Positions 8,234 through 32,000 of a DNA stretch of 32,000 nt are shown here, in pieces. The DNA comes from Candidatus Saccharimonadota bacterium (GTDB lineage: Bacteria; Patescibacteriota; Saccharimonadia; Saccharimonadales; Saccharimonadaceae). Position numbers and translations under genes: made by a program. Position 1 is the stretch's first letter. Every line of letters begins with the position of its first letter. Under the pieces are notes generated by a model that saw only the letters and a program-made list of their open reading frames with translations, was not told the origin of the DNA and did not search any database. The stretch is taken from contig CP011211.1 in assembly GCA_001029695.1 (NCBI GenBank), positions 1,006,684 through 1,038,683 of the forward strand, given 5' to 3'.

Positions 8234-8245
8234 GATTTAGCTCCT

Positions 8246-10545: not shown

Positions 10546-10557
10546 GTACGTTCCTTG

Positions 10558-10824
10558 TTATTTTCGCTTTAGTTTGTATACTTTTAATATTTCTTCGATA
10601 GCCTTGTCTTCTTCGTTGTTCTTTACCTGCTCGATGACGTGAGTGCATAGATGATTTTCGAGTAGTAGATCTTCTACTCCTGATAGCGCTGCTTTAACTG
10701 CTGAGGCTTGCGTGATAACGTCGATACAATACGTGTCTTCTTCTACCATTTTTTGTAGGCCACGAACCTGACCTTCGATAAGTTTGAGGCGACGAATCGC
10801 GCTTGATTTCGTTTCTTTCTTCAT
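10558..10824 (-). CDS. csoR: CsoR/RcnR-family metal-sensing repressor
   Basis: RLKLIEGQVRGLQKMVEEDTYCIDVITQASAVKAAL..LLENHLCTHV is a typical CsoR-family helix bundle. It is the first gene of copper operon 1. Confidence 0.9.
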   Translation of the reverse strand: MKKETKSSAIRRLKLIEGQVRGLQKMVEEDTYCIDVITQASAVKAALSGVEDLLLENHLCTHVIEQVKNNEEDKAIEEILKVYKLKRK

Positions 10825-10830
10825 AACTCC

Positions 10831-10859
10831 AATGTACCCCCTGGGGGTATCTATGTCAA
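10831..10859 (-). promoter_or_regulatory. csoR-copA promoter with an embedded palindromic CsoR-type operator
   Basis: The minus strand reads TTGACA (10859..10854), a 17-nt spacer, then TACATT (10836..10831). The spacer holds TACCCCC-N-GGGGGTA (10835..10849), two perfect 7-nt inverted arms around one central base. The -10 box ends 6 nt before the ATG at 10824. Confidence 0.65.
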
Positions 10860-13205: not shown

Positions 13206-13433
13206 ATGACTAATCCAGACCCATTTCACGATAGACACCTTTACGAAGATGAGGATGCTATTAATTCGGCATTGAACTACCTCAAAATAAATCATCCCGA
13301 TGATGCTAATCGCAACTATGCAATTGCATTCTTGAAGTTCATGCAACGCTTCGCGTTCCATGCAGAAAAGACTAAAGGATTCGACTACGATACATTGTTC
13401 GAGCAATTCAAGAAGTCAGAGCAAAAAGACTAA
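13206..13433 (+). CDS. Small hypothetical protein (75 aa), paralog of ORF 14259..14516
   Basis: Shares the pattern D.I..aL.Y...N.P..A....A..FL ... fDyD.lf.qF.k with the 85-aa ORF. It is convergent with the coupling-protein fragment, and their stop codons overlap. Confidence 0.55.
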   Translation: MTNPDPFHDRHLYEDEDAINSALNYLKINHPDDANRNYAIAFLKFMQRFAFHAEKTKGFDYDTLFEQFKKSEQKD

Positions 13434-14065
13434 GCATCAAACATATCTTCTATGAGAGGATCGACTAGAACAGGTTGATCCTTTTTATTTTTCTCGATGC
13501 CAGTAACTCTTGATGTTCGTCTTTCGACTACTTTCTGTGTTGACTTTGGCTGCTCGGCTTTAGGTTCTTGTTTCGTGGCAAATGCTATTTGCGATACGGC
13601 TTTTACTGTCTGCGCGGTGTCCCTACTCCCTGCAGACTCAAGCAGTAGAGTCTGGCCTGAGAGTGGTTCCTGGGCTTTAATCGCTGACAGTTTCGCGTAG
13701 AAGTTATACGCAGGTAGGTTACTAATCTCTCCCTCGTCAATAAACGGCTTGAAAAGCGGCAATAATGCCTTTTCATCTTGAGGGTTCCCTGTTCTGAAGC
13801 AAATAACTGTTCCAACATTGGCTAAGATTATACTCACCATTTGCTGGTCATCCTGCTGTGACGTTGATTGTTCTGCCATTGTGAGGAATAAACGGTATTT
13901 GCGAGCTTCTGAAAGCATCTGGACAAATGATGCTGTCGCAAAGTTTTGGAACTCATCTACGTATAGGTAGTACGGTCGTCGATCCTCATGCTCGATTCGG
14001 GCACGACGAAGGCTGGCGAGTTGAAGTTTTGCGAGTACCGTAATACCGAATAGTTTTGAGAACCA
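13430..14065 (-). pseudogene. 3' fragment (about the last 211 codons) of a second VirD4/TraG-type coupling-protein gene
   Basis: SKLFGITVLAKLQLASLRRARIEHEDRRPYYLYVDEFQNFATASFVQMLSEARKYRLFLTMAEQSTSQQDD.. aligns with residues from about 655 to the end of the intact 866-aa T4CP (SELLGIMVIAKFQLASLRRVRVKQSERTPYYLYVDEFQNFATMSFVQMLSESRKYKLFLTMAEQSTSQQDD). The frame is closed by a TAG at 14068..14066. There is no N-terminal part and no Walker A. Confidence 0.85.
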
Positions 14066-15368: not shown

Positions 15369-17969
15369 CTATTCTTCGCCCGGTAGCTTGCGATGATGAG
15401 ACGAGGCTACTTTCTGCTCTAGAGATTTCTTTTTTGTCGGAGGTTGTTTGGTTTTGGCTGGTTTCACCACTTCTGGAGTGTACTTTATTGCATAGTTTTT
15501 GCGAGAGCCATCTATGATAGCTTGGCGGATATTCATACCCGAAGTGCTCTTATCTTTAATCAGCAATGTCTCGCCCGACAATGGTTCTTGTGATTGTATG
15601 GCAGCAATCCGCACGTAATAATTAAACGCTGGCAAGTTGGCGATTTCACCTTGCTCGACATAGGGCGCAAACATTTGCAGTAGGGCTTGCTCATCTGCCG
15701 GGTTGCCTGTTCTAAAGCAGACAATCGTGCCGACATTGGCAAGAATAATATTCACCATACGCTGATCGTCTTGTTGCGACGTAGATTGTTCGGCCATTGT
15801 GAGGAATAGTTTGTATTTACGCGACTCAGAGAGCATCTGTACGAATGACATGGTGGCAAAGTTTTGAAACTCATCGACGTACAGATAGTACGGCGTTCGT
15901 TCGGACTGCTTTACGCGAACGCGACGCAACGATGCAAGCTGGAACTTAGCGATTACCATAATGCCAAGCAGCTCCGAGGTATCTTCACCAAGGAGGCCTT
16001 TTGAGAAATTACAAATGAGGATTTTGCGATTGGTAAGAATATCATCAAAATCAATCGTTGATTTTTCTTGCTCCAAGATACGTTTGGCACTGGCCGAGAA
16101 AAGAAAGCGTCCGATTTTTGCCGTGATACCAGCCGCCATTTTGACTTGCTGCATACCTCCGGCCTTGCCAAACTCGTTGCGCCAGAAACGCTTGAGATTC
16201 TCATCGTCAAGCGAGGCGACAACCTTTTTTCGATAGGTCGGGTCGTTGATTAAGTCGTACACCGTGAACAGCGTGGCTTTTTCTTGTGTTAGTGCTGTTT
16301 GTACGGCATTACGCAACATATATTCGATACGATGGCCTCCCGAGTCGTCATCAGAAAATACCTTACGAAAAATAGAGACGATCGTTTCGGTAATGAGGTC
16401 TTTTTCGCGCAGTAATGCATCGCCATCTAGCTTTTCATCAATTTCCAGCAAGTTAAGTCCGATGGGATACGCGAGATCATCAGGATTAAAGTACACTACG
16501 TCTTTGATGCGTTCTTTTGGTACATGATTCAGCAGTGTTTCCGCCATGTCGCCGTGTGGGTCTACGACCGCCACTCCTTTACCATTTTGCATATCTTGGA
16601 CTATTTCGTACTGCAACATAGTTGTTTTGCCGCTGCCGGTGCCGCCGATAATATATTCATGGCGTTCGCGCTCTTGCTCCGTGAGGCCGATTGGCGTCTC
16701 GGTATTGTGATGAATATTTCTACCGATAATCACGTCAAACTGTTTGTTTTGTTTGAGTGATATTGGCGCTGGCAGCGTTCGACTAAGCGAAGTGATGAGG
16801 TTGTCAGTTTTGCTAACTTGGCTTGACGGGAAATGATACAGACTAGCCAGCTCCGTCGAGGCAAGAATGATCGCCGAATGACGGCGTAGCGACGGCAGCC
16901 GACGTGTGGCAGCTCGCTGGCGCAGTCTATCGACGACCGGCAATGTATGTTTTGCTTTGAGTGATTGATATGGCAGCACGCTATAGCCATCGAGCGCGGA
17001 TTTGAGTGCGGCAATGTGCTGCTTGGCCTCGGGGCTTTTGACGAGTACTCGTATATTGACTTGAAAAAGTGGATGTGTGACTTTTTGGTGCATCGTTTCC
17101 ATGAGTTCAAGTTCAAAGGCGCTCAATACTCGGGCTGGGCGATCGTGCGTAGTAATACGTGATCGTTGCTGCACGTCTCGCGTCTTGGCACTATAGTACT
17201 CCCTATGACTTGACGTCATGCCCATATAGACCTCGCCCGCTAGATCGGTCATGCTTGACGCCGCTTTGCCAAATACATTCGTAAAGCGCCCCATTGCCGA
17301 TAGTTGCTTGCCGCTGACTTGCTGCAAGATATTTTCGTTGCCGAGTATCTTGTGTGAGAGTATATCGGCTTCATGCAAACGGACAGGCGTGGCGATAAGC
17401 TGCAATACAATCTCTTCATCATCAGTCAGCTGCGTCATTGCGCCAGTTACATAGCCGAGGGGGTCATGTTGCTCAAATATCGAGGTGAGTGTCAATGGCA
17501 GTACGTAGTGGCCAGTCTCCCTAAACTCAATAACACTGTACGCGCCGTCCGTATTGCGCTCGACCTCTTTTACCTTTGAATCTGGTATATACGAGGTAAT
17601 GGCTTTTTGTATGTTTGATGAGCGGTTTTTTTCAATTTGGAGCAGATAGCGGATACCGTCTTTACGAGTTGAAACGATCTCAAAACTCATCACTGGCGAG
17701 CGATTGATGAGTCTATCTTTGGGTGATCGAGCGGCACGCATACCGTGAAGTACTGAGAATAGTTGTTCGGTTGCCTCTGGCGTTTTGGCGATGTTTGACG
17801 GTGGTGTAATCTCTAGCCACACCATGTCACGACCCAGCAGAAAGCGACGGTTCACAATAGTACGAACAACCAAAAAGATACTCACGCCCGCAACTATCGA
17901 GGCGATAATAACTAGAGCTGTAGGCCAGTACCGTATGGCGGCATCGACGTAATGGGATTGGGCGTCCAT
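15369..17969 (-). CDS. virD4: Type IV secretion coupling protein (VirD4/TraG-type ATPase)
   Basis: N-terminal TM helix (WPTALVIIASIVAGVSIFLVV), Walker A IIGGTGSGKTT and Walker B YYLYVDEFQNF. AGGAG lies 7 nt upstream. The gene overlaps the CHAP gene by 58 nt. Confidence 0.85.
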   Translation of the reverse strand: MDAQSHYVDAAIRYWPTALVIIASIVAGVSIFLVVRTIVNRRFLLGRDMVWLEITPPSNIAKTPEATEQLFSVLHGMRAARSPKDRLINRSPVMSFEIVSTRKDGIRYLLQIEKNRSSNIQKAITSYIPDSKVKEVERNTDGAYSVIEFRETGHYVLPLTLTSIFEQHDPLGYVTGAMTQLTDDEEIVLQLIATPVRLHEADILSHKILGNENILQQVSGKQLSAMGRFTNVFGKAASSMTDLAGEVYMGMTSSHREYYSAKTRDVQQRSRITTHDRPARVLSAFELELMETMHQKVTHPLFQVNIRVLVKSPEAKQHIAALKSALDGYSVLPYQSLKAKHTLPVVDRLRQRAATRRLPSLRRHSAIILASTELASLYHFPSSQVSKTDNLITSLSRTLPAPISLKQNKQFDVIIGRNIHHNTETPIGLTEQERERHEYIIGGTGSGKTTMLQYEIVQDMQNGKGVAVVDPHGDMAETLLNHVPKERIKDVVYFNPDDLAYPIGLNLLEIDEKLDGDALLREKDLITETIVSIFRKVFSDDDSGGHRIEYMLRNAVQTALTQEKATLFTVYDLINDPTYRKKVVASLDDENLKRFWRNEFGKAGGMQQVKMAAGITAKIGRFLFSASAKRILEQEKSTIDFDDILTNRKILICNFSKGLLGEDTSELLGIMVIAKFQLASLRRVRVKQSERTPYYLYVDEFQNFATMSFVQMLSESRKYKLFLTMAEQSTSQQDDQRMVNIILANVGTIVCFRTGNPADEQALLQMFAPYVEQGEIANLPAFNYYVRIAAIQSQEPLSGETLLIKDKSTSGMNIRQAIIDGSRKNYAIKYTPEVVKPAKTKQPPTKKKSLEQKVASSHHRKLPGEE

Positions 17970-18523
17970 GGCTGCGCTCCTATTTTATTGTGAATAAACG
18001 TGTAATGTACGGCCGCTTCTTTTGAAAACGTACGCTGCGAGACAACATTGAGCGTCGGAGCGTTCATCTCGGATATTGTCCACTCACCGCTAACTGTATT
18101 GACCTTGATAACATATGCCACATGGCCGTAGCCACCGCCGCCAACATCGGTTTGGAATACCGCACCGACAGCGGGTGTATTATTGACGGCGTAGTTTTGT
18201 GCGCGTGCATAATCATCCCACGTATTTGCATTACCCCATGTATTCGGTATCGGGCTACCTGCCCATTGCCGCATGGCATATGACCACCACGTACAGTTGC
18301 CCCATGCGTAGGTGTTACCAATCATCACGCCGCCCATATAGAAGCCTTGGGTTTCGGCGCTCTTTGCGTCAGGCGTATTCGCTAGCCAACTGAGGGTTGG
18401 CATCCCCATAGAGAACACGGCAACGACTGGCAAGCTGACGACAACAAACATCACTACAACGATCAGGGCAAGGATGCGCTTGATCTTGAAGCCTACAGCA
18501 AATAGCGCCACCTCTTGGTTCAT
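17912..18523 (-). CDS. Membrane-anchored CHAP-domain peptidoglycan hydrolase (functional VirB1 analogue)
   Basis: TM anchor ILALIVVVMFVVVSLPVVAVF. The CHAP signature is YAWGNCTWWSY, followed by GGYGHVAYVIKV (catalytic Cys and His). The start overlaps the VirB4 stop as ATGA. Confidence 0.85.
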   Translation of the reverse strand: MNQEVALFAVGFKIKRILALIVVVMFVVVSLPVVAVFSMGMPTLSWLANTPDAKSAETQGFYMGGVMIGNTYAWGNCTWWSYAMRQWAGSPIPNTWGNANTWDDYARAQNYAVNNTPAVGAVFQTDVGGGGYGHVAYVIKVNTVSGEWTISEMNAPTLNVVSQRTFSKEAAVHYTFIHNKIGAQPWTPNPITSMPPYGTGLQL

Positions 18524-20289
18524 GATGAATATAGCTCCGTCGGGTCTGTCGTGATGAGGGGATGTTCCTTTTCACTGGCCACCACCTTGACTGCGACGTG
18601 GTTTTGATCGGCAATCAGCAAGGCATCACCTCGTTCGCAGGTTAGTAGAAAGCTCTGCTCATATTCACTCAAATTAAACTCACTCACGACGCCTTTAATC
18701 GTCGTCGTATCTTGTCGCATAAGAATACGTAGCGCACTTTGTGAGGCAATGGCACGGCCGTAGTCACTCTTCAGAAAGTCGTTGGCTTGTTGCGAGATGA
18801 TTGATACACCAAGGTAGTATTTACGAGCGCGGCGCACCAGCCCAGCCACAAATCTCGCGGATTCTTCATGTTCAAGCAGTAGCCAGCCCTCATCTATGAT
18901 GAGAAGCCGTTTTTCGGGCTTGGCCATCACCTGATTTTTCACAAAGTTAGAAATAATCAGCATCATAATTTGGCGCATACTCTCTGGCAAGTCTTTGATA
19001 TCAAAGATAACGAGGCGGTTATCTAGCTCGATGTTGGTCTGCGAGTTAAATACCTCTGCCAACGAGCCAGAGATGTACCTTTCGAGTCGTTCACACAGTT
19101 TCATTTGCCCGAGGTCTTTTAGCTCGACATACAAATCTTCAAGTAATGACTGTTGATCTTTGGCTTTTTTGTAAATCTTGAGGATCGCCTTATCAACGGC
19201 GGCTTTTTCGCGTGATGACAAACCCTCTGCCATGAGGCCAATGACTTCGGTGAGGTCTTGGGTGTGTTCGGACAGGTCGTGTATCTTGTGGAATGTCGTA
19301 GCGAGATCGAATGGGTTAATCTTTTGTTTGCTCTTGGCCGAGAGTTTGATATACGTACCGCCAACCGACTCCGTCAGTCGCTTGTATTCTCGCTCTGGGT
19401 CGATGACGATGACGCGTGTACCCTGCATGAGCTGGCGCAGTATCTCAACCTTGGTGGTGTAGCTTTTGCCAGCACCAGACTGGGCGAACGTGATGGAATT
19501 GGCATTGTGGAGACTAAATCGATCAAGGATTACTAGCGAATTGTTTGATTTGTTGACACCATACAAAATACCACTCTCTTGCACGAGCTCAGACGACATG
19601 AATGGAAATGTGAGCGCTGCGCTAGAACTATCGAGGTTTCGTTTTTGCGCTAATTGATCTTCACCGCGCGGTAAGATTGACTGCAAGGCTTCGAGCTGTT
19701 GGTAGCGTGCGACTTTTGAGTAAAACAATCGTGCCGACATGGTGGCCTCAAGTAGCTTTGTAATCTTGTTTAGCTCTTCTAGTGTTTCGGCACGTAGGCT
19801 AATATAGATGGCCATTTGAAACAGCTTTTCTTGGCCACGCTGGATTTTGTCACGCAGCTCAATGGCTGATTCTAGTGGGTCGGTGATCTCCGACCCGACG
19901 ATCTTGCCAGCTCGCATCATCGCTCGCTTGGTACTCTCAAGCTCGGTAATCTTGCGGTGGAGTTTCGGTAGTGCCGACAAGGCACTGACTTCGTGTACGT
20001 GATAGCTGATGTCGGTATCGTGATTGAAATTGACAAGGCTATCCATCCAGCCAGAGTTAGCCACGAACGGATAGCCCGAGATGTAGAGCGTGCGCATATA
20101 CACACCGTCGATATGCAGATAATCGACATTTTCTTCTAGCCCAGCGTAAGACAAGATGTCGATGGCATCTTGCTCGCCAAACGTAATATCAAGTTCTTTC
20201 TGTCGATCAATCCGAGCCTGCTTGCGCCTTTGAGCTGGCGCGAGTAATTTTTGCTGGACGCTACTGAGCTTTTTTCGTACGTTTTGCAT
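18520..20289 (-). CDS. virB4: VirB4-type T4SS ATPase, C-terminal two-thirds including the ATPase domain
   Basis: Walker A FAQSGAGKSYT, Walker B LLIIDEGWLLL, and the upstream conserved block DGVYMRTLYISGYP typical of Gram-positive-type VirB4. It overlaps the upstream ORF by 29 nt in a different frame. Confidence 0.85.
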   Translation of the reverse strand: MQNVRKKLSSVQQKLLAPAQRRKQARIDRQKELDITFGEQDAIDILSYAGLEENVDYLHIDGVYMRTLYISGYPFVANSGWMDSLVNFNHDTDISYHVHEVSALSALPKLHRKITELESTKRAMMRAGKIVGSEITDPLESAIELRDKIQRGQEKLFQMAIYISLRAETLEELNKITKLLEATMSARLFYSKVARYQQLEALQSILPRGEDQLAQKRNLDSSSAALTFPFMSSELVQESGILYGVNKSNNSLVILDRFSLHNANSITFAQSGAGKSYTTKVEILRQLMQGTRVIVIDPEREYKRLTESVGGTYIKLSAKSKQKINPFDLATTFHKIHDLSEHTQDLTEVIGLMAEGLSSREKAAVDKAILKIYKKAKDQQSLLEDLYVELKDLGQMKLCERLERYISGSLAEVFNSQTNIELDNRLVIFDIKDLPESMRQIMMLIISNFVKNQVMAKPEKRLLIIDEGWLLLEHEESARFVAGLVRRARKYYLGVSIISQQANDFLKSDYGRAIASQSALRILMRQDTTTIKGVVSEFNLSEYEQSFLLTCERGDALLIADQNHVAVKVVASEKEHPLITTDPTELYSS

Positions 20290-20917
20290 GGTCTGCTCCT
20301 TTCTCGATGAGAGCGGTATGAATAATCTGCAAGGCCTGTTCGGTTAGCGGCTGCAACTTGGCCTGTGTCGGACTGTAAAAACTATAGAACAGGTCGAGGA
20401 CTTCGAGACTATCGAGCCGTTCGGCGTGCATACCGAGTCTGCTCATTCCCTTGATAATGATATCCATCTGTATCTTTAGCTGTTCGGACACGAGGTCAAA
20501 GTCTATTTTGCCGTGGACTTTATACGGCAAAACAATGTAGAAATGACGAGTCAGAATCTTGTTGTCAGTGATTAGCGAGCGGATAAACTCATCATAGTTT
20601 TGTAACTGGGTGCGATAGATCGGTACAGTTTCGCCGTCAAGCCGGTCTGCTAATTCTTCAAGGTATTTATCCATATCAATCTCACGTGTTCGGACAAGGA
20701 TTTGCAAGCTGGTTCCGACCGAGTTCAGAAAGCTCTCGTAGGTTTCGATGATGGCGTCTTGTTCGTATTCGCTACGTAGTTCAAAGTTGAGCGACGACAC
20801 TTGCAAGATTGCTCGGTACTCATTGTTCGGTAGCATCAAAATGCCATCGCGTACTCCCTTGAGTGCGATCTGATTACGTGAGCTGGTTTTATTCTTCGAT
20901 TTCCGTAAGCCTAACAT
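20261..20917 (-). CDS. virB4: VirB4 N-terminal domain encoded as a separate ORF (split gene or frameshift)
   Basis: GVRDGILMLPNNEYRAILQVSSLNFELRSEYEQDAIIETYESFLNS matches the N-terminal block of Gram-positive VirB4 proteins. I prefer the ATG at 20917 (GGAGG 5 nt upstream) over the track start at 20980. The ORF ends inside an A6 run shared with the next ORF. Confidence 0.7.
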   Translation of the reverse strand: MLGLRKSKNKTSSRNQIALKGVRDGILMLPNNEYRAILQVSSLNFELRSEYEQDAIIETYESFLNSVGTSLQILVRTREIDMDKYLEELADRLDGETVPIYRTQLQNYDEFIRSLITDNKILTRHFYIVLPYKVHGKIDFDLVSEQLKIQMDIIIKGMSRLGMHAERLDSLEVLDLFYSFYSPTQAKLQPLTEQALQIIHTALIEKGADHAKRTKKAQ

Positions 20918-21398
20918 GCAGGCCTCCTTTCTTTCCGGTTTCAAAACGGACTTTTGCGGCTGGGTTCTCAATCGTGGCAAGGACTCTGGCGGTCGTCGGT
21001 ATATCGAGCTGATTGCGCGATACTTGCTTAGTGACGACGGTGACGGTTTTTTCTGGCTGTTCTTGGTCTTTTCGTGCCGGGTAGTTTTCTCGCAGTGTGC
21101 TGACGTTTTTGTTAAACAGATAGTATTTCGGGCGAAGATTGTAGCGAAGTATGGTGACGAGCCAAAACGCCACCAGCTTACCCTTGATACGGATTGCTAG
21201 AATACAGAAGATCATCCCTACTACACCCATGATGACGTACTTGTAGATTGCACTGCCTATGAATGGCGGCAGCGCCACAAAGATGCCAGCTGCCGCAAAT
21301 ACTGGCACGATGAGTAGTAAGATTTGCGAAAAGCCAAGGTTGCCAATAATACGATCTTCGACAGTGGTGACTTGTGCTGGCACAACGGTCATTTTCAT
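20889..21398 (-). CDS. PrgI/TcpE-like small membrane protein (VirB3 analogue)
   Basis: EDRIIGNLGFSQILLLIVPVF followed by a second TM helix. It sits immediately upstream of VirB4, as in Gram-positive T4SS loci. Its start overlaps the upstream stop as ATGA. Confidence 0.65.
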   Translation of the reverse strand: MKMTVVPAQVTTVEDRIIGNLGFSQILLLIVPVFAAAGIFVALPPFIGSAIYKYVIMGVVGMIFCILAIRIKGKLVAFWLVTILRYNLRPKYYLFNKNVSTLRENYPARKDQEQPEKTVTVVTKQVSRNQLDIPTTARVLATIENPAAKVRFETGKKGGLHVRLTEIEE

Positions 21399-22894
21399 AG
21401 CGTCTTATCCTTACTGGTATTCTTCGGCAGAGTCGAGGGCGCAGGCACACGAGTAACTGTCACTTTGGGCGCTTCGTAGGTCGTGCCAGTTGGCTTGCTC
21501 TTTGGCGTCGGCGTTGCGGAATGGGTAATCTCGGCCGTACCTTTCTTGTTTGCATAACTAATACTTTGTGTTTTGCCGCTGCGGACTGCGTGCGATTCGA
21601 CACTTCTCATGGCTCGTGTTTTCTTGGCACTATCTGTTTTGGAGCTAATTGCACTGGTGGCCGCTTTTGTCTTGCCAGTCATATAGCTGACGCCGTTGAT
21701 GAACTGACCGCCGAGCTTCCTCATGTTGCGCGTCCCCATACTGACATAACTAAATTGCATCATGACGCTCTGCGTCTTGAGTAGCAGCAGAATGGTGGCA
21801 ATGCCCGTCACCATCGCCATCAATGTGTCGGGTACGGCGTTCTCGCCTGAAGCTGTCGCCATACCAGTGAATAACGAGGCCGACAGCTGGAGTATTACTA
21901 CATGGACGAATAGTACGAAGATCGTTGTCAGATAAGTCTTAAAGGTGGTTTCGGCAAAATCACGACAGCCCGGAATCAGCCAAACGAGACTAATCAATGG
22001 CGCGAGAACTGCGCCGATGTAGAGCGTCACCAGACGCATGACGTAGTAGACGAGTAGCACGATCGAACAGATGACAAATCCAACCATGATTAGCAGTGCC
22101 GCAACACCCAGGCCAGAAGTTTCCTCGACCACTTTCATCAGAGTATCCCAGACTGACGACGAGCCAGAGATTAACCCGACAGCCTTGATGAGTGCATTAG
22201 ACAGTGCAATAATACCGTCAATCAAGAAGATCGAGCTATTCATCAGAACGAATATTATCGCTACTCTGGGGAAAAGGTGCTTTGGCTCAACTTCATCGAA
22301 GCCTAGTGCTGACGCACTCATGACATGAAAGCCAATCAGCACCAAGACAAGGATAAATAGCACGTTGCCTATGCCAACCATTGCCAGCCAGAAGTTAAAT
22401 ACTGTCTGATTACTGGCCATTGTCGGCGTGGAGGTAGTAAAGAAATCTAGTGCATCGAGAAATGGCTTGGCGACAGCATTGATAATCTGCCCCAACAGAC
22501 CTGTGACGGCTTTAATAATCATATCCAGCAGGCCGTTACTTTGCTCCTCTTCTTTGATCGCCTCTAGGCTCGGAAGCGTAGCGTTGCCAGAGTTCGTTGG
22601 CGTGCCATAGGAGTTCGTTAGGATAGTCGTCAGTGTGATGGCCGCCAGCACAATAAGAAGGCCGAGCAGAGCTTTTTTGAGTATCTCTTTGGCGTGTTCC
22701 ATCTGGTCGGGTTTGCCGCTGCTGGTGATATACAGATAGCCAGATTGCACGATAAAGAACACGCAAGCTAATCCTGCTAATCCAGACAAAATCCGCACGA
22801 CAGGCATGACATACTCACGCATCGAGGTGATCGCCGTCGAAGTATCAGCGAAGAATGTTAGCCCTGATAGTAGGGTGTTCTCAAGCCCCCACAT
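21395..22894 (-). CDS. Polytopic VirB6-like T4SS membrane protein with an N-terminal pilin-like module
   Basis: At least 7 hydrophobic helices. Residues from about 30 to 95 (VVRILSGLAGLACVFFIVQSGYLYITSSGKPDQMEHAKEILKKALLGLLIVLAA) are clearly paralogous to the adjacent pilin. The C-terminal tail is basic and disordered. Confidence 0.7.
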   Translation of the reverse strand: MWGLENTLLSGLTFFADTSTAITSMREYVMPVVRILSGLAGLACVFFIVQSGYLYITSSGKPDQMEHAKEILKKALLGLLIVLAAITLTTILTNSYGTPTNSGNATLPSLEAIKEEEQSNGLLDMIIKAVTGLLGQIINAVAKPFLDALDFFTTSTPTMASNQTVFNFWLAMVGIGNVLFILVLVLIGFHVMSASALGFDEVEPKHLFPRVAIIFVLMNSSIFLIDGIIALSNALIKAVGLISGSSSVWDTLMKVVEETSGLGVAALLIMVGFVICSIVLLVYYVMRLVTLYIGAVLAPLISLVWLIPGCRDFAETTFKTYLTTIFVLFVHVVILQLSASLFTGMATASGENAVPDTLMAMVTGIATILLLLKTQSVMMQFSYVSMGTRNMRKLGGQFINGVSYMTGKTKAATSAISSKTDSAKKTRAMRSVESHAVRSGKTQSISYANKKGTAEITHSATPTPKSKPTGTTYEAPKVTVTRVPAPSTLPKNTSKDKTL

Positions 22895-22903
22895 AGCAGC
22901 TTG

Positions 22904-23245
22904 TTACCCTCCAAACGCCTGTTTTGCGATGGTAGTAACGATCTGTGCCAGCACGAACGCTGCAATGACAATGGCCAGACCAATCGCCGACCACGTCAGC
23001 GTGCGCTTTGCTTTGTCGAGCTGTTCTGGGTTGCCCGAGCTGGTGATGTAGGTGAATCCACCGACAACAAAGAAGCCGGTCGCAACGAGACCAGCCAAGC
23101 CCGCAAGGACGGTAATGACATTTCTAATAAAGCTCTCTACGTTACTCACGCCAGCCGTTTGTGCAAACGCTGGCTCCGCCAAAAATAACGGCAGCCCAAT
23201 CGCGACGAATGCTGCTATAAAATAGTATGTCTTTTTCATTCCCAT
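22904..23245 (-). CDS. T4SS pilin-like protein (VirB2/TrbC analogue)
   Basis: The signal peptide ends AFA|Q. It is followed by two hydrophobic helices flanking YITSSGNPEQLDKAKRTL. The protein is 113 aa and is the first gene of the T4SS operon. Confidence 0.7.
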   Translation of the reverse strand: MGMKKTYYFIAAFVAIGLPLFLAEPAFAQTAGVSNVESFIRNVITVLAGLAGLVATGFFVVGGFTYITSSGNPEQLDKAKRTLTWSAIGLAIVIAAFVLAQIVTTIAKQAFGG

Positions 23246-24469: not shown

Positions 24470-24877
24470 CTACTTTGCAAGAGTTCCTAGCTTCAGTTGG
24501 TCAAGTTGTTCCTGAGCTACTTGACTATGCGGTGTACCCGAACCAATAGGCTGCCCATCTTCAGTAGTGCGAGAAGTAAATAAAGTTGTCGCATCTATCC
24601 CGCAAGCACGAACTACCTCATTGCCACCTGGATGACGATTTACAAAATCGGTAAGTTCGTACACTTGCCCTGAAATAACTGTCCAGCAGTCTGTTTTTGA
24701 GTTATGGGTGGCTATTTCGGCCATGGTGAACGTTTTGTTTTGTTGATTAGCAGTTGTGTCTTGCGTCGCTTTGGGCTTCTGATTATTCGAGCGATTCGTC
24801 AGTGTCCATACACCTGCTCCTATAAGAGCGAGTAGTAAGAGGGTGATCGTAATGAGTATGATTGTGTTTTTCTTCAT
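24470..24877 (-). CDS. Membrane-anchored cytochrome b5-like heme/steroid-binding-domain protein
   Basis: The N-terminal anchor is IILITITLLLLALIGAGVW. It is followed by FTMAEIATHNSKTDCWTVISGQVYELTDFVNRHPGGNEVVRACGIDATTLF, which contains the HPGG motif. Confidence 0.8.
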   Translation of the reverse strand: MKKNTIILITITLLLLALIGAGVWTLTNRSNNQKPKATQDTTANQQNKTFTMAEIATHNSKTDCWTVISGQVYELTDFVNRHPGGNEVVRACGIDATTLFTSRTTEDGQPIGSGTPHSQVAQEQLDQLKLGTLAK

Positions 24878-24915: not shown

Positions 24916-25542
24916 GTGTATTATTTGATTAAACGTTATCGCACCTGGATTTTATTTGGAACAGTATCTACTGTAAGCATCGCTTTATGGCTCATGACAC
25001 TATCCGGGAGTGTTTCATCGATGTACCAATTCTTTCCTATACTCGGGGTTCTTGCATGGACAACGATGTGGGTTCACTATGTCGCAAGTTCTATCGGCAA
25101 ACCTGCTAATAGCAAGCGATTCGCAACGTGGACTGGACATATAGTTCTATTGTTCATAGTGATACATCCCAGTATTTTTTTGGTGCAACGCTTCCTCGAC
25201 ACCGGCTTACTCCCTCCAGAAAGCTACATCAGCTACGTTGGCTCCTATCGCGCATGGGCAGTGGCAATCGCGATAGCTGCGCTGGCAACGTTCTTGCTCT
25301 ATGATGTCCTAAAACATTTCCGTAGTAAGCGTATCGTACATGACATATGGTCGTATGTTGGTCTACTTCAAGCCTGTGCTATGGCGGCAATTTTTATACA
25401 CGGCTTAATACTTGGAATAAGTATGATCAGCGGCTACTTCATGCTGTGGTGGACATTCTTAGGGATATTGCTTGCTCCATGTCTTGTATTGCAAGTCGTT
25501 CGTGATTTTAAAGTATCCGATCGAACAAAAACAGAAGTTTAA
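24916..25542 (+). CDS. Polytopic membrane protein with 5-6 TM helices and several intramembrane His residues; function unknown
   Basis: The hydrophobic helices contain WVHY, GHIVLLFIVIHP and IFIHGL. It begins with a GTG and the exact start is uncertain. It is convergent with the last DUF305 gene, and their stop codons overlap. Confidence 0.6.
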   Translation: MYYLIKRYRTWILFGTVSTVSIALWLMTLSGSVSSMYQFFPILGVLAWTTMWVHYVASSIGKPANSKRFATWTGHIVLLFIVIHPSIFLVQRFLDTGLLPPESYISYVGSYRAWAVAIAIAALATFLLYDVLKHFRSKRIVHDIWSYVGLLQACAMAAIFIHGLILGISMISGYFMLWWTFLGILLAPCLVLQVVRDFKVSDRTKTEV

Positions 25543-26192
25543 TAACCCCAGTCTTTTTGCCACTGCTTCATCTGCTCGATTTCTATTGTCTGCGCGCTAA
25601 TAACGGCACTGGCGAGGTCTTTTATCTCTTGGTGTTTTGCATTGGTCGCGGCATATTGAGACATTTCAACTGCTTGCTCGTGGTGAAGAATCATTTGCTT
25701 CAGAAACTCTTTATCGTATGCTTCACCTTTTAAGCCTTGTAATTTGTTTTGCATCTCTATCATATCTCCGCCCATGTCCATGTCAGCACCGCCATGGCTA
25801 CCATGACCACCACTCATCGTTTCTTTATAGCTCCATGCTTTTTGCCATGCTCGCATTTGCATGATCTCTGCACTCTGACTCTGCACGATATTGCTCGCGA
25901 GTGTGCGAATCTCATCATGGGCAGTAACTGCCATTGCTTGTTCTGACATGTTCAGAGCACCTTCATGGTGAGCAAGCATGTCGGCAATGTACGCCTCATC
26001 AAATGCGTCTCCTTTTAAGTTTGCATATTTATTATCGCTTGCGGGTTTTTGTTTCTTTTCATCTGCTGTCGTGTTGCTTGTCTGTAGCGCCCCTTCAGGT
26101 ACTGGTTTTACTGAAAAGACTACAAAATACCAAACGGCAGCTGCGGCAATCGCAAGTACGACAATCACAGTGATAAATATTTTATTCTTCAT
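25539..26192 (-). CDS. DUF305-family protein with two repeats and a signal anchor
   Basis: DEAYIADMLAHHEGALNM and DKEFLKQMILHHEQAVEM, each followed by I(E/M)QM..WQK.WGY. An N-terminal TM helix is present. Confidence 0.85.
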   Translation of the reverse strand: MKNKIFITVIVVLAIAAAAVWYFVVFSVKPVPEGALQTSNTTADEKKQKPASDNKYANLKGDAFDEAYIADMLAHHEGALNMSEQAMAVTAHDEIRTLASNIVQSQSAEIMQMRAWQKAWSYKETMSGGHGSHGGADMDMGGDMIEMQNKLQGLKGEAYDKEFLKQMILHHEQAVEMSQYAATNAKHQEIKDLASAVISAQTIEIEQMKQWQKDWGY

Positions 26193-26202: not shown

Positions 26203-26838
26203 CTAATTTCCTTTAGCTTGTAATTGTTTCATTGTCTGTATTTCCTCGGTTTGTTTTTTCACGGTCTTGTTCTTGATATTTATCATCTGACCAAACTGCA
26301 TGCCCTTTAAATACTCTGCGTTTGATATTTCATTTGCACCCTCATGATGGGCAATCATCAAGCGCAAGAATAGCTTATCTACCGAACTGCCTGTAGCAGA
26401 TTCAAGTTCACGCAGATCACTGAGGTTTGCCATCCCAGGATGAGTCGGGTACATATCGTGGCCTTCCATCTCAGGAAAATCAGACAGATTGAAATATGTC
26501 TCTTTCCACTCGGTAAGCCAGTTAATGTACTGTTTGGTGTCACTCGTTAGCTCATCGCTGATACGTACCGCCAGTTGGCGAACTTTGTCGTCGCTCGCAT
26601 TTTTCTTCGCGATGTCCGCCATCTGGATACCCTGCTGATTATGGACGATCATTTTCTTCGCAAAATCAGTATCCATGTAGTTATGCTCGTTTGGGTTAGC
26701 CGGTTTCTCACTTTTACTTGCTGACGGCATCGGCTTACTTTCTGGAGCGGAAGCTGACTGGTTTTGTGAAAACCACCAGCCTATTGCTGCTGCTCCGACT
26801 GCGAGCACAATAATCGTTCCTACAACTATCTTTCGCAT
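26203..26838 (-). CDS. Divergent DUF305-like protein with a signal anchor
   Basis: DTDFAKKMIVHNQQGIQM (HN in place of HH) and DKLFLRLMIAHHEGANEI. An N-terminal TM helix is present. Confidence 0.75.
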   Translation of the reverse strand: MRKIVVGTIIVLAVGAAAIGWWFSQNQSASAPESKPMPSASKSEKPANPNEHNYMDTDFAKKMIVHNQQGIQMADIAKKNASDDKVRQLAVRISDELTSDTKQYINWLTEWKETYFNLSDFPEMEGHDMYPTHPGMANLSDLRELESATGSSVDKLFLRLMIAHHEGANEISNAEYLKGMQFGQMINIKNKTVKKQTEEIQTMKQLQAKGN

Positions 26839-26855: not shown

Positions 26856-27374
26856 CTATCGTGCAAGCGGTTCGGGGCTTTTGCCCAGATTACGCGCAAC
26901 ATAGTCTTCTATTTTTTGCTGATCATACGCCAGTAATGTTTCACTCCTGCGCCATGAGCTTAATTCTATCGGCGATTTATTGGTTGCTCTTGGTGCAAGT
27001 ACTATCTTGGTTGGTTGAAACTTTGGATTCGCAAAAGGTGCTGACAAAAGTCGGGTCAATTTATCAACTTGGTCTTTCGGTAGGCTTGGTTGGTATGAAA
27101 TGTAGATTCCCCCATGCTCCATATTGTGTACCAGTTGATCGTCGCGGACTTCTGTATCGTACACGCCCCACGAAACAGGGTTTGCGTGAGCACCAGAAGT
27201 TGGCGGCTGGTCGCCGCCATACTTCTTGCTGTCCACATGTTCACGGCCGTGATCACTTTGTTCAACCCCTGGACGTGGTGGTTCCGGTGGTTTGTTTGCC
27301 TTTGCAGCAATGATTGCTCCAGTAAAACCAAGAGTAACAACTGCCAATACAGCGGGCAGGGTTCTAATTTTCAT
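26856..27374 (-). CDS. DUF3105-family membrane-anchored putative metal-binding protein
   Basis: PPTSGAHANPVSWGVYDTEV..LVHNMEHGGIYISYQP matches the DUF3105 pattern. An N-terminal anchor is present. Confidence 0.75.
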   Translation of the reverse strand: MKIRTLPAVLAVVTLGFTGAIIAAKANKPPEPPRPGVEQSDHGREHVDSKKYGGDQPPTSGAHANPVSWGVYDTEVRDDQLVHNMEHGGIYISYQPSLPKDQVDKLTRLLSAPFANPKFQPTKIVLAPRATNKSPIELSSWRRSETLLAYDQQKIEDYVARNLGKSPEPLAR

Positions 27375-28041
27375 AGCCCCAATCTTTTTGCCACTGCTTC
27401 ATTTGCTTGATTTCTTGTGTCTGAGCAGAAACGACAGCTTTGGTAAGATCTTTTAGCTCTTCGTGCTGTGCGTTTTTCTCACCAGGAGCAGCCATGTCGA
27501 TAGCCGACTGGTGGTGCATGATCATCTGCTCGATAAAAGCTTTGTCAAACTCATCACCCGTCTTTCCTTCCAGGGCGCTGTTCATACCAGTCATCTCATC
27601 CATCATACCCATAGCACTGTGATCCATCATATTGTCGGCACTTGTCGATGGATAACCCCATTCTTTTTGCCAAGCCGTCATCTGACTAATCTCACCCTCT
27701 TGAGCCGAGATGATGTCGTTCGCCATATCTTTCAACTCTTGGTGCTTGGCATTTTTCTGTGCTAGCTTCGCCATATCAACAGCACCTTGGTGGTGGGCTA
27801 TCATATTGGCGATGAAATTACGGTCGTATGTCTCACCACTCATGGCTGAGTACTGTTTGTACGTAGCACTATTGGTATCAACGAGCGAATCATTGTTTTT
27901 TGAACCATCCATATCCATGCCGGACATGCTGTCCGTATTTGATTTAGTCGTGTTGCCACGCAGGCCGTAGTAGAGCGCGCCGCCAGCGACTGCCAGCACG
28001 AGCACAACAGCAATGATAGTAAATAATTTCTTATTGTTCAT
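27364..28041 (-). CDS. DUF305-family protein with two repeats and a signal anchor
   Basis: DRNFIANMIAHHQGAVDM and DKAFIEQMIMHHQSAIDM. Both repeats end in QM..WQKEWGY or WQKDWGY. Confidence 0.85.
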   Translation of the reverse strand: MNNKKLFTIIAVVLVLAVAGGALYYGLRGNTTKSNTDSMSGMDMDGSKNNDSLVDTNSATYKQYSAMSGETYDRNFIANMIAHHQGAVDMAKLAQKNAKHQELKDMANDIISAQEGEISQMTAWQKEWGYPSTSADNMMDHSAMGMMDEMTGMNSALEGKTGDEFDKAFIEQMIMHHQSAIDMAAPGEKNAQHEELKDLTKAVVSAQTQEIKQMKQWQKDWGYEN

Positions 28042-28090: not shown

Positions 28091-28468
28091 TCAAGCGCGA
28101 AAGACTGCGAGCTTTATATAAGCTGGCGTGCTATCAGGAGGTGGTTCTCTATCTAGGGCAGCTCTTGTCTCTTGACCGTGTTTTTCTTCAAGGGCCAAGA
28201 GGGGCGATGTTTGGAACTGAACATAGAATGGAGGTTGTGGCTGGTCGTCCTCGTCTTTGTCAGCCTCCTCGATAACCTCATCTTTGTGAAGAGTTGCTGC
28301 GGTACAGGCAGTAAAACAACTTGACGAACTCGTCTGATGAGATGCGCCGCCCATTGAGTGTCCCATGCTGCTCATAGGCTGTAATGCGGCTGCATGTATA
28401 CCTAACGACAGTACGCTAAGTACTGTGAGCATAAATACGGAAACAACTCCATGGAAGACTCGTTTCAT
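28091..28468 (-). CDS. Secreted Met/His/Cys-rich hypothetical protein; possible copper binder
   Basis: A signal peptide is followed by MSSMGHSMGGASHQTSSSSCFTACTAATLH and then an acidic stretch. The gene lies inside copper operon 2. Confidence 0.5.
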   Translation of the reverse strand: MKRVFHGVVSVFMLTVLSVLSLGIHAAALQPMSSMGHSMGGASHQTSSSSCFTACTAATLHKDEVIEEADKDEDDQPQPPFYVQFQTSPLLALEEKHGQETRAALDREPPPDSTPAYIKLAVFRA

Positions 28469-28507: not shown

Positions 28508-29455
28508 CTAGTAGTTTGCCTCGCTGTAGTGAGGGAAGAAATCTTGATGGAGACTATCGCTACTCAACCCGTTATCTTCTAATTGCTTGCCGAGTATTTC
28601 TACCATTGGTTCGGGGCCTGATATGAAGACCTGAGATGAATTGATATCTGGCACGAGCTCAGTGAGCTTTTCGGCAGTAAGCGGTTCGCCGATGACGTAC
28701 TGGACTCTAAACTCTGGGTGGCGTTTGCTTGCCTCGTCGAACTCCACTTTGAATGGTAACTCATCAGTTCGACCATTATAAATAAGCGTTGCCGACACCG
28801 GCTGTCCGCTATGACCCCGTGCTTTTAACATGCTATAAAACGGCGTAATGCCGATGCCACCTGCGATGAACACTAACGGCTTATCACTTTCTTGCCAAAC
28901 GAAATCGCCGTCCGGCTGCTCAATGAGTTGTACTTCATCTCCAACTGCAAGAGCGGCCAACGCTTGCTTAAATGTCGTGCTGGTAACACGAGTGGTGACT
29001 TGAATAAAACCATCATGTGGCGTTGATGAAATCGTAAACCATCGCTTTGTACCTTCTTCATCGGGGTTATCGTGAGGGATTTCAATGCGGATGAACTGCC
29101 CCGGAGTCCACGACAAAGGTTGGTCAGCGGTGAAACGAAATGCCCAGATATTATCTGTCAGGTGTTCTTTTTCCTTTAATCGGAGCGTCGCTGTTGTCGG
29201 AATATGGTGGTGATGTTCATGACCCAGATGATGATCGGTATACTGCTCAGGGTTCTTATCGAATAGCTGAACGCATGTGGCGCAACACAAATAAATTCGT
29301 TTACCATCAACATCTCTGAAATGTCCGAGTTTTTCAGCCTCTGCTGTATCAATAGCGTCACCTGTTACTGGGCAGACGGCCATACGATCTACTGGGATAT
29401 CGGCTGCCTCACTGTCGTGATGATGATGGTGTTCATGTTCGTCGTGGTTGTGCAT
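28508..29455 (-). CDS. His-rich YHS/TRASH-type metal-binding domain fused to a ferredoxin-NADP reductase-like FAD/NAD(P) oxidoreductase
   Basis: HEHHHHH, then CPVTGDAID..DGKRIYLCCATCVQLFDKNPEQY (YHS-like). This is followed by RWFTISSTP (RxYS-type FAD motif) and FIAGGIGITPFYSML (NAD(P)-binding). GGAGG RBS present. Confidence 0.8.
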   Translation of the reverse strand: MHNHDEHEHHHHHDSEAADIPVDRMAVCPVTGDAIDTAEAEKLGHFRDVDGKRIYLCCATCVQLFDKNPEQYTDHHLGHEHHHHIPTTATLRLKEKEHLTDNIWAFRFTADQPLSWTPGQFIRIEIPHDNPDEEGTKRWFTISSTPHDGFIQVTTRVTSTTFKQALAALAVGDEVQLIEQPDGDFVWQESDKPLVFIAGGIGITPFYSMLKARGHSGQPVSATLIYNGRTDELPFKVEFDEASKRHPEFRVQYVIGEPLTAEKLTELVPDINSSQVFISGPEPMVEILGKQLEDNGLSSDSLHQDFFPHYSEANY

Positions 29456-29464
29456 ACTACCTCC

Positions 29465-31696
29465 TTATAATTTTATTCGTCGTAGGAACTGTGCATTGAT
29501 GGCGACAATAATCGTTGAAAGTGACATCAGGACTGCGCCGAGTGCTGGCGAAAGAACAAACCCAATTCCCGAGGTAACACCAGCCGCCAGTGGGATAGCG
29601 AGGGCGTTGTAGCCGGTCGCCCAGGCAAGGTTTTGCAGCATCTTGCGGTAGGTAGCTTTTGAAAGCGTGACGATCTTTGCTACGCCTCGTGGGTCGCTGC
29701 TTGCTAGCACGATTCCAGCCGACTCAATCGCCACATCCGTGCCCGCACCGATCGCGATACCAATATTAGCCTGCGTCAGCGCTGGCGCATCGTTCACGCC
29801 ATCACCAACCATGGCAACCCGGCTCCCATCTGCCTGTAACTTCTTGACTGTTTCGGCTTTATTCTCCGGCAGGACTTCGGCAAAGTACTCTTTAATACCG
29901 AGTTCTTTGGCTACCCAAGCAGCCACGCCTTTGCTGTCGCCGGTCAGCATAGCAACGCGTTTGCCCATATCATGCAGTCGGGCGACGGCTTCTTTGGACT
30001 CTTCGCGGATAACATCAGCCAGCATGATTGCGCCGAGAACGGTCTTATCCTCGACGACATACACGACCGTTTTTCCATCAGTTGAGGCTTCTTCTGCCGC
30101 TTTTTGTAACTCGCTATCAAGCTTTAGTTTCAGTTCTTCAAGTAACCTCGGACCACCCACATATACCATTTTGCCACCGGCTTTAGCTCGTACACCACGG
30201 CCAGAAAGTGCCGAAAAGTCAGTGGCGTGAGTTTCCGGCACATTTTGACCGTGTGCATACTGGAAAATTGCTTTTGCAATCGGATGCTCTGATTCGCGTT
30301 CGAGTGCGGCGGCAAGACTCAAGGTACGACCTTTGTCTTTAGCGAGGATATCAACCACACCTTGTTCACCCTTAGTGAGTGTGCCGGTCTTATCAAATAA
30401 CACGACATCTATATTGCGTGCTGATTCGAGTGCCATTCGTTCACGTACCAGCAGCCCATTCTTTGCCGCTAGTGTGGTAGAGATAGCCGTGACGAGCGGA
30501 ATAGCTAGACCCAGTGCATGTGGACAGGCAATCACCAGTACCGTGACAACTCGCTCAAAAATAAACCCTGCCGACGCACCAGCTATCCACCAGCCTATCC
30601 ATGTGAGGAGCGCTGCACCAAGCGCAACAAATGTGAGATAAAAGGCCGCTTTGTCTGCGAGTACCTGCGTCTTTGACTTGCTCGTCTGGGCGTCCTCGAC
30701 AAGTTTCATAATGCCAGCCAGCGCCGTGTCACCGCCAACTTTCGTGACTTCAATCGTCAAGGCGCCGTTTGCATTGATCGTCCCACCGATAACCTCAGCT
30801 CCGACTATTTTCTTCACCGGCCTTGACTCACCAGTCAGCATTGATTCATTAACTTCAGACTCGCCCTTGATAACTTTTCCATCTACCGGAACCTGCGCGC
30901 CAGGGCGAACCAGGACGGCATCACCTACTTTAAGCTGGCTCACTGAGACCTTGCGGCTTTCCCCATGTTCAACCAGCTCTGCTTCATCGGGTAGCAGCTT
31001 GGCAAGCTCATTGAGTGCGCCTTGTGCACTTTCCACCGACGCCATTTCCAGCCAGTGGCCGAGCAGCATAATCGTTACCAATGTCGCCAGCTCCCACCAG
31101 AAGTCCATACCACTGACGAGCTTGAGCGTCACGAGGCTGCTATAGATAAACGCAACGGTAATCGCCATTGAAATCAGCGTCATCATACCCGGCTGCCGAG
31201 CTGCAAGCTCCGCTTTTGCACTCTTGAGGAATACCAAGCCACCGTAAAAGAATATAATAATGCCAAACACTGCCGGAATGTATTCGCTACCAGCAAATGC
31301 CAAATGAACCCCAAACCAACTCTGTACCATCGGTGAAAATATCAGTGTCGGAATGGTCAGGAGGAGGCTAAGCCAAAACTTCTGCTTAAACATGTTTGGA
31401 TTGTGGCCAGCATGCTTGTCGTGATCGTCATGTTGGTCGTGCGATGATCGTTTAGTCTTCTCAAGCGCCATGTGGCATTTCGGACACATACCCGGTTTAT
31501 CTGATGTGACATCTGGATGCATTGGACAAGCGTATACGCTGCCATGCGCGGTGGCCGATGGATTACTATGGTCATGATCACCGTTGGTTTCGTCTTCCGT
31601 ATCATCATCAGATACTAGATTCATATTACATTTCGGGCATACCCCCGGCTCATTGCTGATAACCTCTGGATGCATCGGACATGTATATTTTGCCAT
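29465..31696 (-). CDS. copB: P1B-3 (CopB-like) copper P-type ATPase with a CPH motif, two N-terminal CPMHPE..CPKC modules and a His-rich linker
   Basis: YTCPMHPEVISNEPGVCPKCNMNL and YACPMHPDVTSDKPGMCPKCHMAL, then HDQHDDHDKHAGH. Core motifs are ACPHALGLAIP, DKTGTLT, GDGVNDAPAL, GYN and MSLSTIIV. Confidence 0.9.
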   Translation of the reverse strand: MAKYTCPMHPEVISNEPGVCPKCNMNLVSDDDTEDETNGDHDHSNPSATAHGSVYACPMHPDVTSDKPGMCPKCHMALEKTKRSSHDQHDDHDKHAGHNPNMFKQKFWLSLLLTIPTLIFSPMVQSWFGVHLAFAGSEYIPAVFGIIIFFYGGLVFLKSAKAELAARQPGMMTLISMAITVAFIYSSLVTLKLVSGMDFWWELATLVTIMLLGHWLEMASVESAQGALNELAKLLPDEAELVEHGESRKVSVSQLKVGDAVLVRPGAQVPVDGKVIKGESEVNESMLTGESRPVKKIVGAEVIGGTINANGALTIEVTKVGGDTALAGIMKLVEDAQTSKSKTQVLADKAAFYLTFVALGAALLTWIGWWIAGASAGFIFERVVTVLVIACPHALGLAIPLVTAISTTLAAKNGLLVRERMALESARNIDVVLFDKTGTLTKGEQGVVDILAKDKGRTLSLAAALERESEHPIAKAIFQYAHGQNVPETHATDFSALSGRGVRAKAGGKMVYVGGPRLLEELKLKLDSELQKAAEEASTDGKTVVYVVEDKTVLGAIMLADVIREESKEAVARLHDMGKRVAMLTGDSKGVAAWVAKELGIKEYFAEVLPENKAETVKKLQADGSRVAMVGDGVNDAPALTQANIGIAIGAGTDVAIESAGIVLASSDPRGVAKIVTLSKATYRKMLQNLAWATGYNALAIPLAAGVTSGIGFVLSPALGAVLMSLSTIIVAINAQFLRRIKL

Positions 31697-31722: not shown

Positions 31723-31992
31723 CTATTTCTTGCGCTTCAATTTATATACTTTCAGAATCTCTTCGGTTGCTTGCGCCTCGTTGCCGCTTCTTACCTGGTG
31801 AATGACATGGGTGCTTAAGTGATTTTCTAACAATAAGTCTTCAACACTCGACAGCGCCTCTTTAATCGCTGAAGCTTGGGTGATAATGTCGATACAATAT
31901 TTATCTTCTTCGACCATTTTTTGTAGACCGCGAATCTGACCTTCAATGATTTTCAGACGACGAATCGCGCGTGGTTTCATTTCTTTCTTCAT
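31723..31992 (-). CDS. csoR: CsoR/RcnR-family metal-sensing repressor (second copy)
   Basis: RLKIIEGQIRGLQKMVEEDKYCIDIITQASAIKEAL..LLENHLSTHV. It is about 75% identical to the copy at 10558..10824. Its promoter lies outside the window. Confidence 0.9.
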   Translation of the reverse strand: MKKEMKPRAIRRLKIIEGQIRGLQKMVEEDKYCIDIITQASAIKEALSSVEDLLLENHLSTHVIHQVRSGNEAQATEEILKVYKLKRKK

Positions 31993-32000
31993 AATTTAAT

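Follow-up and report, generated by a model that had tools for sequence, protein, structure and literature searches.

The need of bacteria for dedicated Cu(II) reductases in the cytoplasm is an open question. The P1B-3 pumps, once thought to be Cu(II) transporters, in fact move Cu(I) and are specific for it (PMC10654040), while the usual view holds that cytosolic copper is mostly Cu(I) already (PMC7558416). It is argued in a review from 2020 that the chemical reduction step may limit the rate, and the only specific prokaryotic cupric reductases named there are CcoG and A. fulgidus CopZ, the electron donors of both being unknown; the cupric reductase activity of NDH-2 proved unspecific (PMC7558416). 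CcoG of Rhodobacter capsulatus, which affects copper tolerance, is a proposed source of Cu(I) for chaperones and P1B ATPases (PMC7558416). It is membrane-bound, contains two [4Fe-4S] clusters and is tied to the cbb3 oxidase. A. fulgidus CopZ joins an Fe-S domain to an HMA (CopZ) chaperone and reduces Cu(II) (PMC7558416).

Here, a reductase gene located behind a P1B-3 pump gene in a Saccharibacteria genome was compared with these systems. The window analyzed comprises 32,000 nucleotides and represents the last 32 kb of the single 1.04-Mb contig (C1) of a genome that is 98.8% complete, and the named homologs of the gene product are from Saccharibacteria throughout. In the encoded fusion, a His tract is followed by a four-Cys YHS/TRASH domain, a His linker and an FNR-type FAD/NAD(P)H reductase (Table 1). 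Similarly to A. fulgidus CopZ, it combines soluble metal-binding and redox modules tied to a P1B pump, but the domains are unrelated and the fusion would have an NAD(P)H site of its own; no match to the HMA (CopZ) domain was found in the fusion or the genome. It has no homology to CcoG, from which it differs in being soluble and in having only four Cys and no ferredoxin motif, in a genome without a heme-copper oxidase match. The two-domain FAD/NAD(P) fold and its motifs are those of E. coli Fre and Fpr, cytochrome b5 reductase, the SpNOX dehydrogenase domain and the FNR modules of BenC, T4moF and Hmp. However, identity to known FNR reductases is 20-23% only, Ser replaces the FNR Cys, and no curated equivalog is reached. 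The extra domain of BenC/T4moF/Hmp-type proteins is a [2Fe-2S] ferredoxin or a globin, whereas the fusion has a YHS treble clef with His tracts. In fold, Cys ligand positions and association with copper genes, this YHS domain resembles those of M. phlei adenylyl cyclase, archaeal CopT, and the CusB-type and ArsR fusions; unlike the common D-x-x-C ... C-S-x-x-C form of YHS/TRASH proteins, it represents a four-Cys subtype, C-x-x-T ... C-C-x-x-C. No other YHS-FNR fusion was present among the best 150 YHS representatives, and no description of one was found in the literature searched, coverage of which was incomplete. Both domains are known and databases label the fusion automatically; what is new is the modularity of the metal-binding arm.

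Table 1. Positions of the features of the copper operon, the fusion protein and adjoining genes (window coordinates unless a locus is given)
Feature	Position	Strand	Remark
csoR leader	31993..32000	-	
csoR/ricR-family copper-sensing repressor	31723..31992	-	
copB, P1B-3 (CPH) copper ATPase, 743 aa	29465..31696	-	two N-terminal HMBD repeats, His-rich stretch
Ribosome-binding site of fusion	29460..29466	-	overlaps copB stop codon
His/YHS-FNR fusion gene, 315 aa, soluble	28508..29455	-	
N-terminal His tract, aa 2-13	29417..29452	-	predicted disordered; pLDDT < 50 for aa 1-18
YHS/TRASH domain, aa 24-73	29237..29386	-	invariant C28, C57, C58, C61 and D33
Second His tract, aa 75-84	29204..29233	-	in flexible linker
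FAD-binding beta-barrel, aa 91-186	28898..29185	-	RxFT motif
NAD(P)-binding domain, aa 192-315	28511..28882	-	GGIGxTP, Ser279 for FNR Cys, D305-x-F307, short C-terminal extension
125-aa exported Met/His/Cys-rich protein	28091..28468	-	no family; conserved directly after fusion
CopM-family (DUF305) protein 1	27364..28041	-	above NCBIfam cut-off
DUF3105 protein	26856..27374	-	membrane-anchored
DUF305 protein 2	26203..26838	-	below CopM cut-off
CopM-family (DUF305) protein 3	25539..26192	-	above cut-off
208-aa ferric-reductase-like membrane protein	24916..25542	+	three invariant His, two conserved Met; convergent with operon
Membrane-anchored cytochrome b5-like protein	24470..24877	-	divergent from membrane protein gene
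ArsR-YHS regulators	L209:8141-8641, L220:8031-8549, L221:8317-8832		

The first-pass annotation of this gene had described a His-rich N-terminus, a Cys-bearing YHS-like module, an RxxS FAD motif, a GGIGITP NAD(P) motif and the absence of a signal peptide, in a gene immediately after a CPH-type ATPase. Two His tracts were indeed located, at aa 2-13 and aa 75-84, the latter forming the linker between YHS and FNR. The Cys-bearing module was recovered as well, with four Cys invariant in 115 homologs and with YHS/TRASH folds ranking first at weak scores. GGIGITP lies at aa 199-205, CPH at aa 391-393 of the pump, and 9 nt separate the gene from the copB stop. The FAD motif is present as described, but in the form R-x-F-T (R138-T141) and not RxxS, R-x-F-T being the cytochrome-b5-reductase-like form of RxY(S/T). 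The N-terminus is not hydrophobic (maximum 19-residue hydropathy 0.73 within the first 40 aa), and no signal or membrane segment was found across the 315 aa. The His run is unique among the 836 genome ORFs of at least 150 aa, and in the AlphaFold model of the full fusion (mean pLDDT 86) both His tracts are disordered.

The reductase portion matches PF00970 (FAD_binding_6, aa 91-186) and PF00175 (NAD_binding_1, aa 196-287), both above cut-off, and Foldseek places the fusion among FNR-family folds (E about 1e-17, prob 1.0). The fusion belongs to the FNR superfamily by these sequence and fold matches, and flavin binding and NAD(P)H turnover are predicted. The motifs R138-x-F-T141, G200-x-G-x-T-P205 and D305-x-F307 are invariant or nearly so. 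The short loop following the FAD motif, together with the C-terminal extension, presumably points to FAD bound in the bacterial manner. Against the named NCBIfam equivalogs (Fpr, Fre, BenC, Hmp), the best score was 73 bits, below cut-offs of 230-500. Residues R138, T141, K163, R229, S279, D305, F307 and Y310 are equally conserved in fused proteins and their plain sister proteins, and comparison of the FNR core with the unlinked sister clade revealed no catalytic change specific to the fused proteins. The core is intact but unspecialised. In comparison with the closest locus, its dN is 0.098 and its dS 1.19 (dN/dS ~0.08). Two more FNR paralogs are encoded in the genome, and both share the Ser in place of the FNR Cys. 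In a quick, unrooted tree for which no AU test was made, the fused clade nests with plain FNRs.

Recognition of the Cys domain relies on weak scores. PF04945 matches the query at E=0.0011 and 19.3 bits, below the gathering cut-off of 30.3, and is precomputed on most homologs; furthermore, a profile built from the Cys domain retrieves proteins with strong YHS matches. The domain model (pLDDT 87) structurally resembles L24e, the diiron-hydroxylase YHS domain and FCS fingers best, weakly so (Z 4-5), while Foldseek yielded no match to it at E <= 0.001 and an Atlas search with the domain gave low-score YHS leads only. The domain may be assigned to the YHS/TRASH treble clefs, with a predicted metal-binding role. 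C28, C57, C58 and C61 are invariant in 115/115 homologs having the domain, and comparison with the closest locus (dN 0.035, dS 1.44, dN/dS ~0.02) argues for strong purifying selection on the YHS domain where it is present. A role of the four Cys as an Fe-S ferredoxin-like center was set aside, the domain being deletable and of treble-clef fold. It is the sole YHS match in the genome. The same subtype also occurs as free proteins of 61-79 aa, one of them beside cupredoxin-like and DUF3105-like genes. In some Saccharibacteria, the position directly upstream of copB is occupied not by CsoR but by ArsR-type regulators whose C-terminal domain is a canonical YHS. Complex prediction between the YHS domain and the N-terminal 100 aa of CopB scored 0.00, which speaks neither for nor against contact.

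It can be observed from the homologs that the arm is modular. Among the 91 clusters nearest by FNR domain alone, His tract and YHS occur together in 81/91 and a His tract without YHS in 6/91. The second His tract is present in about a quarter of homologs and absent from ~74%, and a five-Cys DUF7128-like module has been added in at least 4. Three of the four YHS-deleted alleles read (L265, L266, L270) lie behind copB, the fourth near csoR-copM yet outside that unit. In these three, the short gene begins 2-14 nt past the copB stop and the CsoR box is intact, so that they represent real deletions and not start miscalls. Because the first His tract is joined to the second in all YHS-less alleles, recombination between the two tracts is the likely cause of YHS loss, judging from these junctions. 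Such alleles occupy several positions in the quick tree, and for one of them identity to the query is 66%, suggesting that the loss has been tolerated over a long time. The N-terminal His tract is kept in every copB-linked allele read, and plain sister FNRs have none. Since alleles without YHS remain behind copB, it is the reductase that is retained, and YHS is no obligatory gate; the arm behaves as an accessory metal-binding domain, not as an obligatory electron carrier or switch. In a separate 110-aa protein (P0203), a His tract, YHS and the first FNR residues run directly into the tail of the 125-aa protein encoded downstream, as though a deletion had taken out the reductase and spared the arm; an assembly artefact is the alternative.

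The order of the operon is csoR-copB-fusion-copM, with gaps between genes of -11 to 49 nt. The ATPase displays CPH in TM4, YN in TM5, MSxS in TM6 and a His-rich N-terminus, and matches TIGR01511 above cut-off. A palindromic CsoR box, ATACCCC-N4-GGGGTAT, is located at C1:2-19; on a circular contig it would lie just beyond the window end, with 9 nt between it and the csoR start. The box also precedes csoR in 9/9 fused loci tested, in the further cassettes read and in the second copper operon of the window, which supports both the joining of contig end to start and regulation by CsoR. With a csoR gene and a GC-rich palindromic operator upstream, the operon belongs to the predicted CsoR regulon. 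It should be noted that a loose pattern of the box has six occurrences in the genome, which equals chance expectation, and its fixed position is what counts; promoter and terminator scans remained at chance level. The second copper operon (7880-10824, minus strand) encodes CsoR, a CupA-like cupredoxin, a CPC-type CopA without N-terminal HMA domain and a thioredoxin, and has its own CsoR box at 10835.

The survey of linkage to P1B-3 ATPases revealed a strong, non-random copper link. Fused homologs of 60 to 85% identity lie directly behind copB in 9/9 distinct loci with unrelated flanking DNA, and in a tenth locus one gene stands between; unfused FNRs lie within 1 kb of such a pump in 0/80, with a P1B ATPase 2-4 kb away in 4/80, counts for which no p-value is given because kin are not independent. 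The 80 controls, from the pattern-scan matches listed in genome and metagenome contigs, had at least 3 kb on both sides. The closest plain sister FNRs (53-64%) have unrelated gene neighbors and no copper link. In the other direction the link is weak, the fusion being found in 2/251 genomes of the order and 2/401 of the phylum, against CopB-like pumps in about 70/251. None of 40 other Saccharibacteria CopB loci contains it, which implies that the pumps work without it, and two of them have the same cassette with the fusion missing from its slot; the fusion is thus an optional accessory of the copB operon. Near other copper loci, a second FNR of 285 aa lies just upstream of csoR in L190 and L193, and a 425-aa NOX-like protein, a ferric-reductase membrane domain fused to FNR (L224:10380-11657), lies 2.2 kb from a copB.

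The copper cassette is probably mobile, as part of an integrative conjugative element of Saccharibacteria, according to the genes on either side of it. One side is formed by a conjugation module (15369-23245, minus strand) with VirB2 pilin, VirB6, a PrgI-like protein, VirB4, CHAP and a coupling protein; the other, across the contig join (C1:1990-4764), by a relaxase-like gene, a serine recombinase and tRNA-Glu. The conjugation/recombinase layout around the cassette recurs in L186/L187. The tRNA-Glu end showed no att-site duplication, and the element borders were not located. A 162-aa ORF (13430-13918, minus strand) repeats the C-terminal part of the coupling protein (15369-17969), which suggests a remnant of an earlier element. 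ARAGORN listed 41 tRNAs in the genome, one with a four-base anticodon loop (C1:41056-41132), while a few expected ones were unlisted. Elsewhere in the genome (L002:3-2196; C1 about 317-320 kb), an ApbE flavin transferase gene precedes a gene that combines an NqrB/RnfD-like membrane domain with an FNR module, possibly an outward electron-transfer unit.

Regarding the cell context, HMA/CopZ, GCS2, BshC, flavodoxin, COX1 and multicopper oxidase gave no match in the 98.8% complete genome, with controls working. Matches to PF02955 hinted at a glutathione synthase, yet the best of them is RimK; two weaker ones are ATP-grasp matches without assignment. CopZ and glutathione/bacillithiol synthesis were accordingly not found by these genome searches, and other thiol routes or uptake from the host are possible. 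As neither COX1 nor multicopper oxidase was found, detoxification is indicated rather than cuproenzyme assembly, and the latter role was set aside for the query genome. Two related His-only cassettes do adjoin such genes: L265:1-2693 a heme-copper oxidase operon and L266:7321-8466 a nitrite-reductase-like multicopper protein.

A copper-related role of some kind is very probable for the fusion. Considering the fold, the intact FNR motifs, the operon position, the CsoR box and the selection on both domains, we tentatively regard it as an optional, copper-induced chaperone-reductase, with the catalytic part inferred. In such a process, rising copper would release the operon from CsoR, and copper would be captured by the flexible His tract or tracts, which favor Cu(II). 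Hydride would pass from NAD(P)H onto FAD in the FNR domain, and FAD may then pass electrons one at a time to the tethered Cu(II), or to Cys residues that Cu(II) has oxidised, so that copper would be reduced or its site kept in the reduced state. The YHS thiolates would hold Cu(I) and pass it to the N-terminal metal-binding domains or the entry site of CopB, from which it would be exported to CopM-type binders outside. YHS may improve holding and hand-over and would be dispensable for the core job because His-only alleles persist. The first-pass annotation had proposed either a Cu(II) reductase or a metal-gated electron donor feeding the pump. The wording of the latter is loose, since a P1B ATPase requires ATP and Cu(I), not electrons, and gating is weakened by alleles that lack the whole YHS yet keep their place in the operon. 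A Cu(II) reductase would agree with a Cu(I)-specific pump (PMC10654040) and with a genome in which CopZ and glutathione/bacillithiol synthesis were not found.

The chaperone-reductase reading is favored by the tie to copB in fused loci and its absence in unfused FNRs, by the CsoR box before csoR in this genome, the nine fused loci and further cassettes, and by a His tract that accompanies copB-linked alleles and is lacking from copper-unlinked sisters. The free-standing occurrence of the same YHS subtype, once in a copper-type cluster, the lack of HMA/CopZ, GCS2 and BshC matches and the indication of detoxification point in the same direction, as do CcoG and A. fulgidus CopZ as precedents for supplying Cu(I) to P1B pumps (PMC7558416). 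Against it stand the absence of the fusion from the other CopB loci, the usual view that most cytosolic copper is Cu(I) to begin with, and the unspecific NDH-2 precedent (PMC7558416). The FNR core, moreover, carries no copper-specific change and two other FNR paralogs are available, and flavin-driven reduction of Cu(II) in air involves a risk of redox cycling. The unspecialised core, indistinguishable from that of unlinked sister FNRs, would also suit general redox support under copper stress, where a Fre/Fpr-like flavin reductase co-induced with the pump renews reduced flavin or returns oxidised protein thiols or metal centers to the reduced state, and the His/YHS arm serves as a flavin-independent metal sponge or chaperone; we consider this possible but doubtful. 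The closest sequence relatives include Fre and Fpr, the modular arm is joined via a disordered linker, and selenocysteine in some YHS proteins hints at redox-active thiols in the family. Nevertheless, the genome already has other FNR paralogs, a flavodoxin acceptor was not found by genome search, and the presence of fusion and His tract in all copB-linked alleles is simpler if metal and flavin act together.

The adjoining 208-aa membrane protein is a possible, not obligatory, partner of the fusion. Three of its His are invariant and it is similar to PF01794 clusters (score 0.91-0.93), and a soluble FNR beside a separate ferric-reductase-like membrane protein recalls Fre-MsrQ (PMC11031084). The fusion could then be the cytoplasmic half of a split NOX-like chain, in which the membrane protein and then the anchored cytochrome b5 would receive the electrons for reduction or repair of an extracellular target. 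The membrane protein and b5 genes follow the cassette in the window, L184, L186, L265 and L276, and the membrane protein gene is often divergent from that of an anchored cytochrome b5 (8/30 loci). Unlike in Fre-MsrQ, however, the two genes are not consistently co-occurring: 102/251 genomes of the order contain the membrane protein and 2/251 the fusion, and the membrane protein is missing from most cassettes, with at least 7 loci lacking it, and was not found in the fusion-bearing G082. Its gene, moreover, has the opposite orientation and is not part of the CsoR unit, and the chain is unlikely. Switching of the reductase by copper on YHS has a direct precedent in the copper-specific activation of the M. 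phlei YHS adenylyl cyclase (PMC4626032) and would agree with the strong purifying selection on YHS. It is nonetheless decidedly unlikely, given YHS-less alleles that persist in the same slot, expression already gated by CsoR and domains joined by a disordered linker of variable length. The existence of free YHS proteins of the same subtype, a mobile cassette that collects cargo and the nesting of the fused clade with plain FNRs would be compatible with a passenger, that is, a chance fusion between the gene of a free YHS chaperone and a cassette-captured FNR, the metal arm alone mattering for copper. It is YHS, however, that is lost and the FNR part that is kept, with invariant catalytic residues, a dN/dS of about 0.08 and copB linkage persisting down to 60% identity, which makes a passenger very improbable.

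If the chaperone-reductase reading is true, the fusion would perform the Cu(II)-to-Cu(I) step for export by the pump, for which few dedicated enzymes are known. It combines an NAD(P)H donor site, a metal arm and a tight link to copB, and natural controls exist in the His-only alleles, the alleles with an extra module and the arm-less sister FNRs, so that the question is directly testable in vitro. If general redox support is the true function, the fusion would be a stress flavin reductase of the ordinary kind, apart from its unusual tag. A bolder proposal, about which we are rather skeptical, would add the fusion to the prokaryotic cupric reductases as a third type: a flavoenzyme that is soluble, depends on NAD(P)H and needs no partner. 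Its own copper-chaperone arm would replace both CopZ and low-molecular-weight thiols in the reduced genomes of Saccharibacteria, and the enzyme would deliver Cu(I) directly to CopB and spread with a mobile cassette. The fusion may also show how copper is handled in Saccharibacteria where CopZ and the common thiol pathways are not found.
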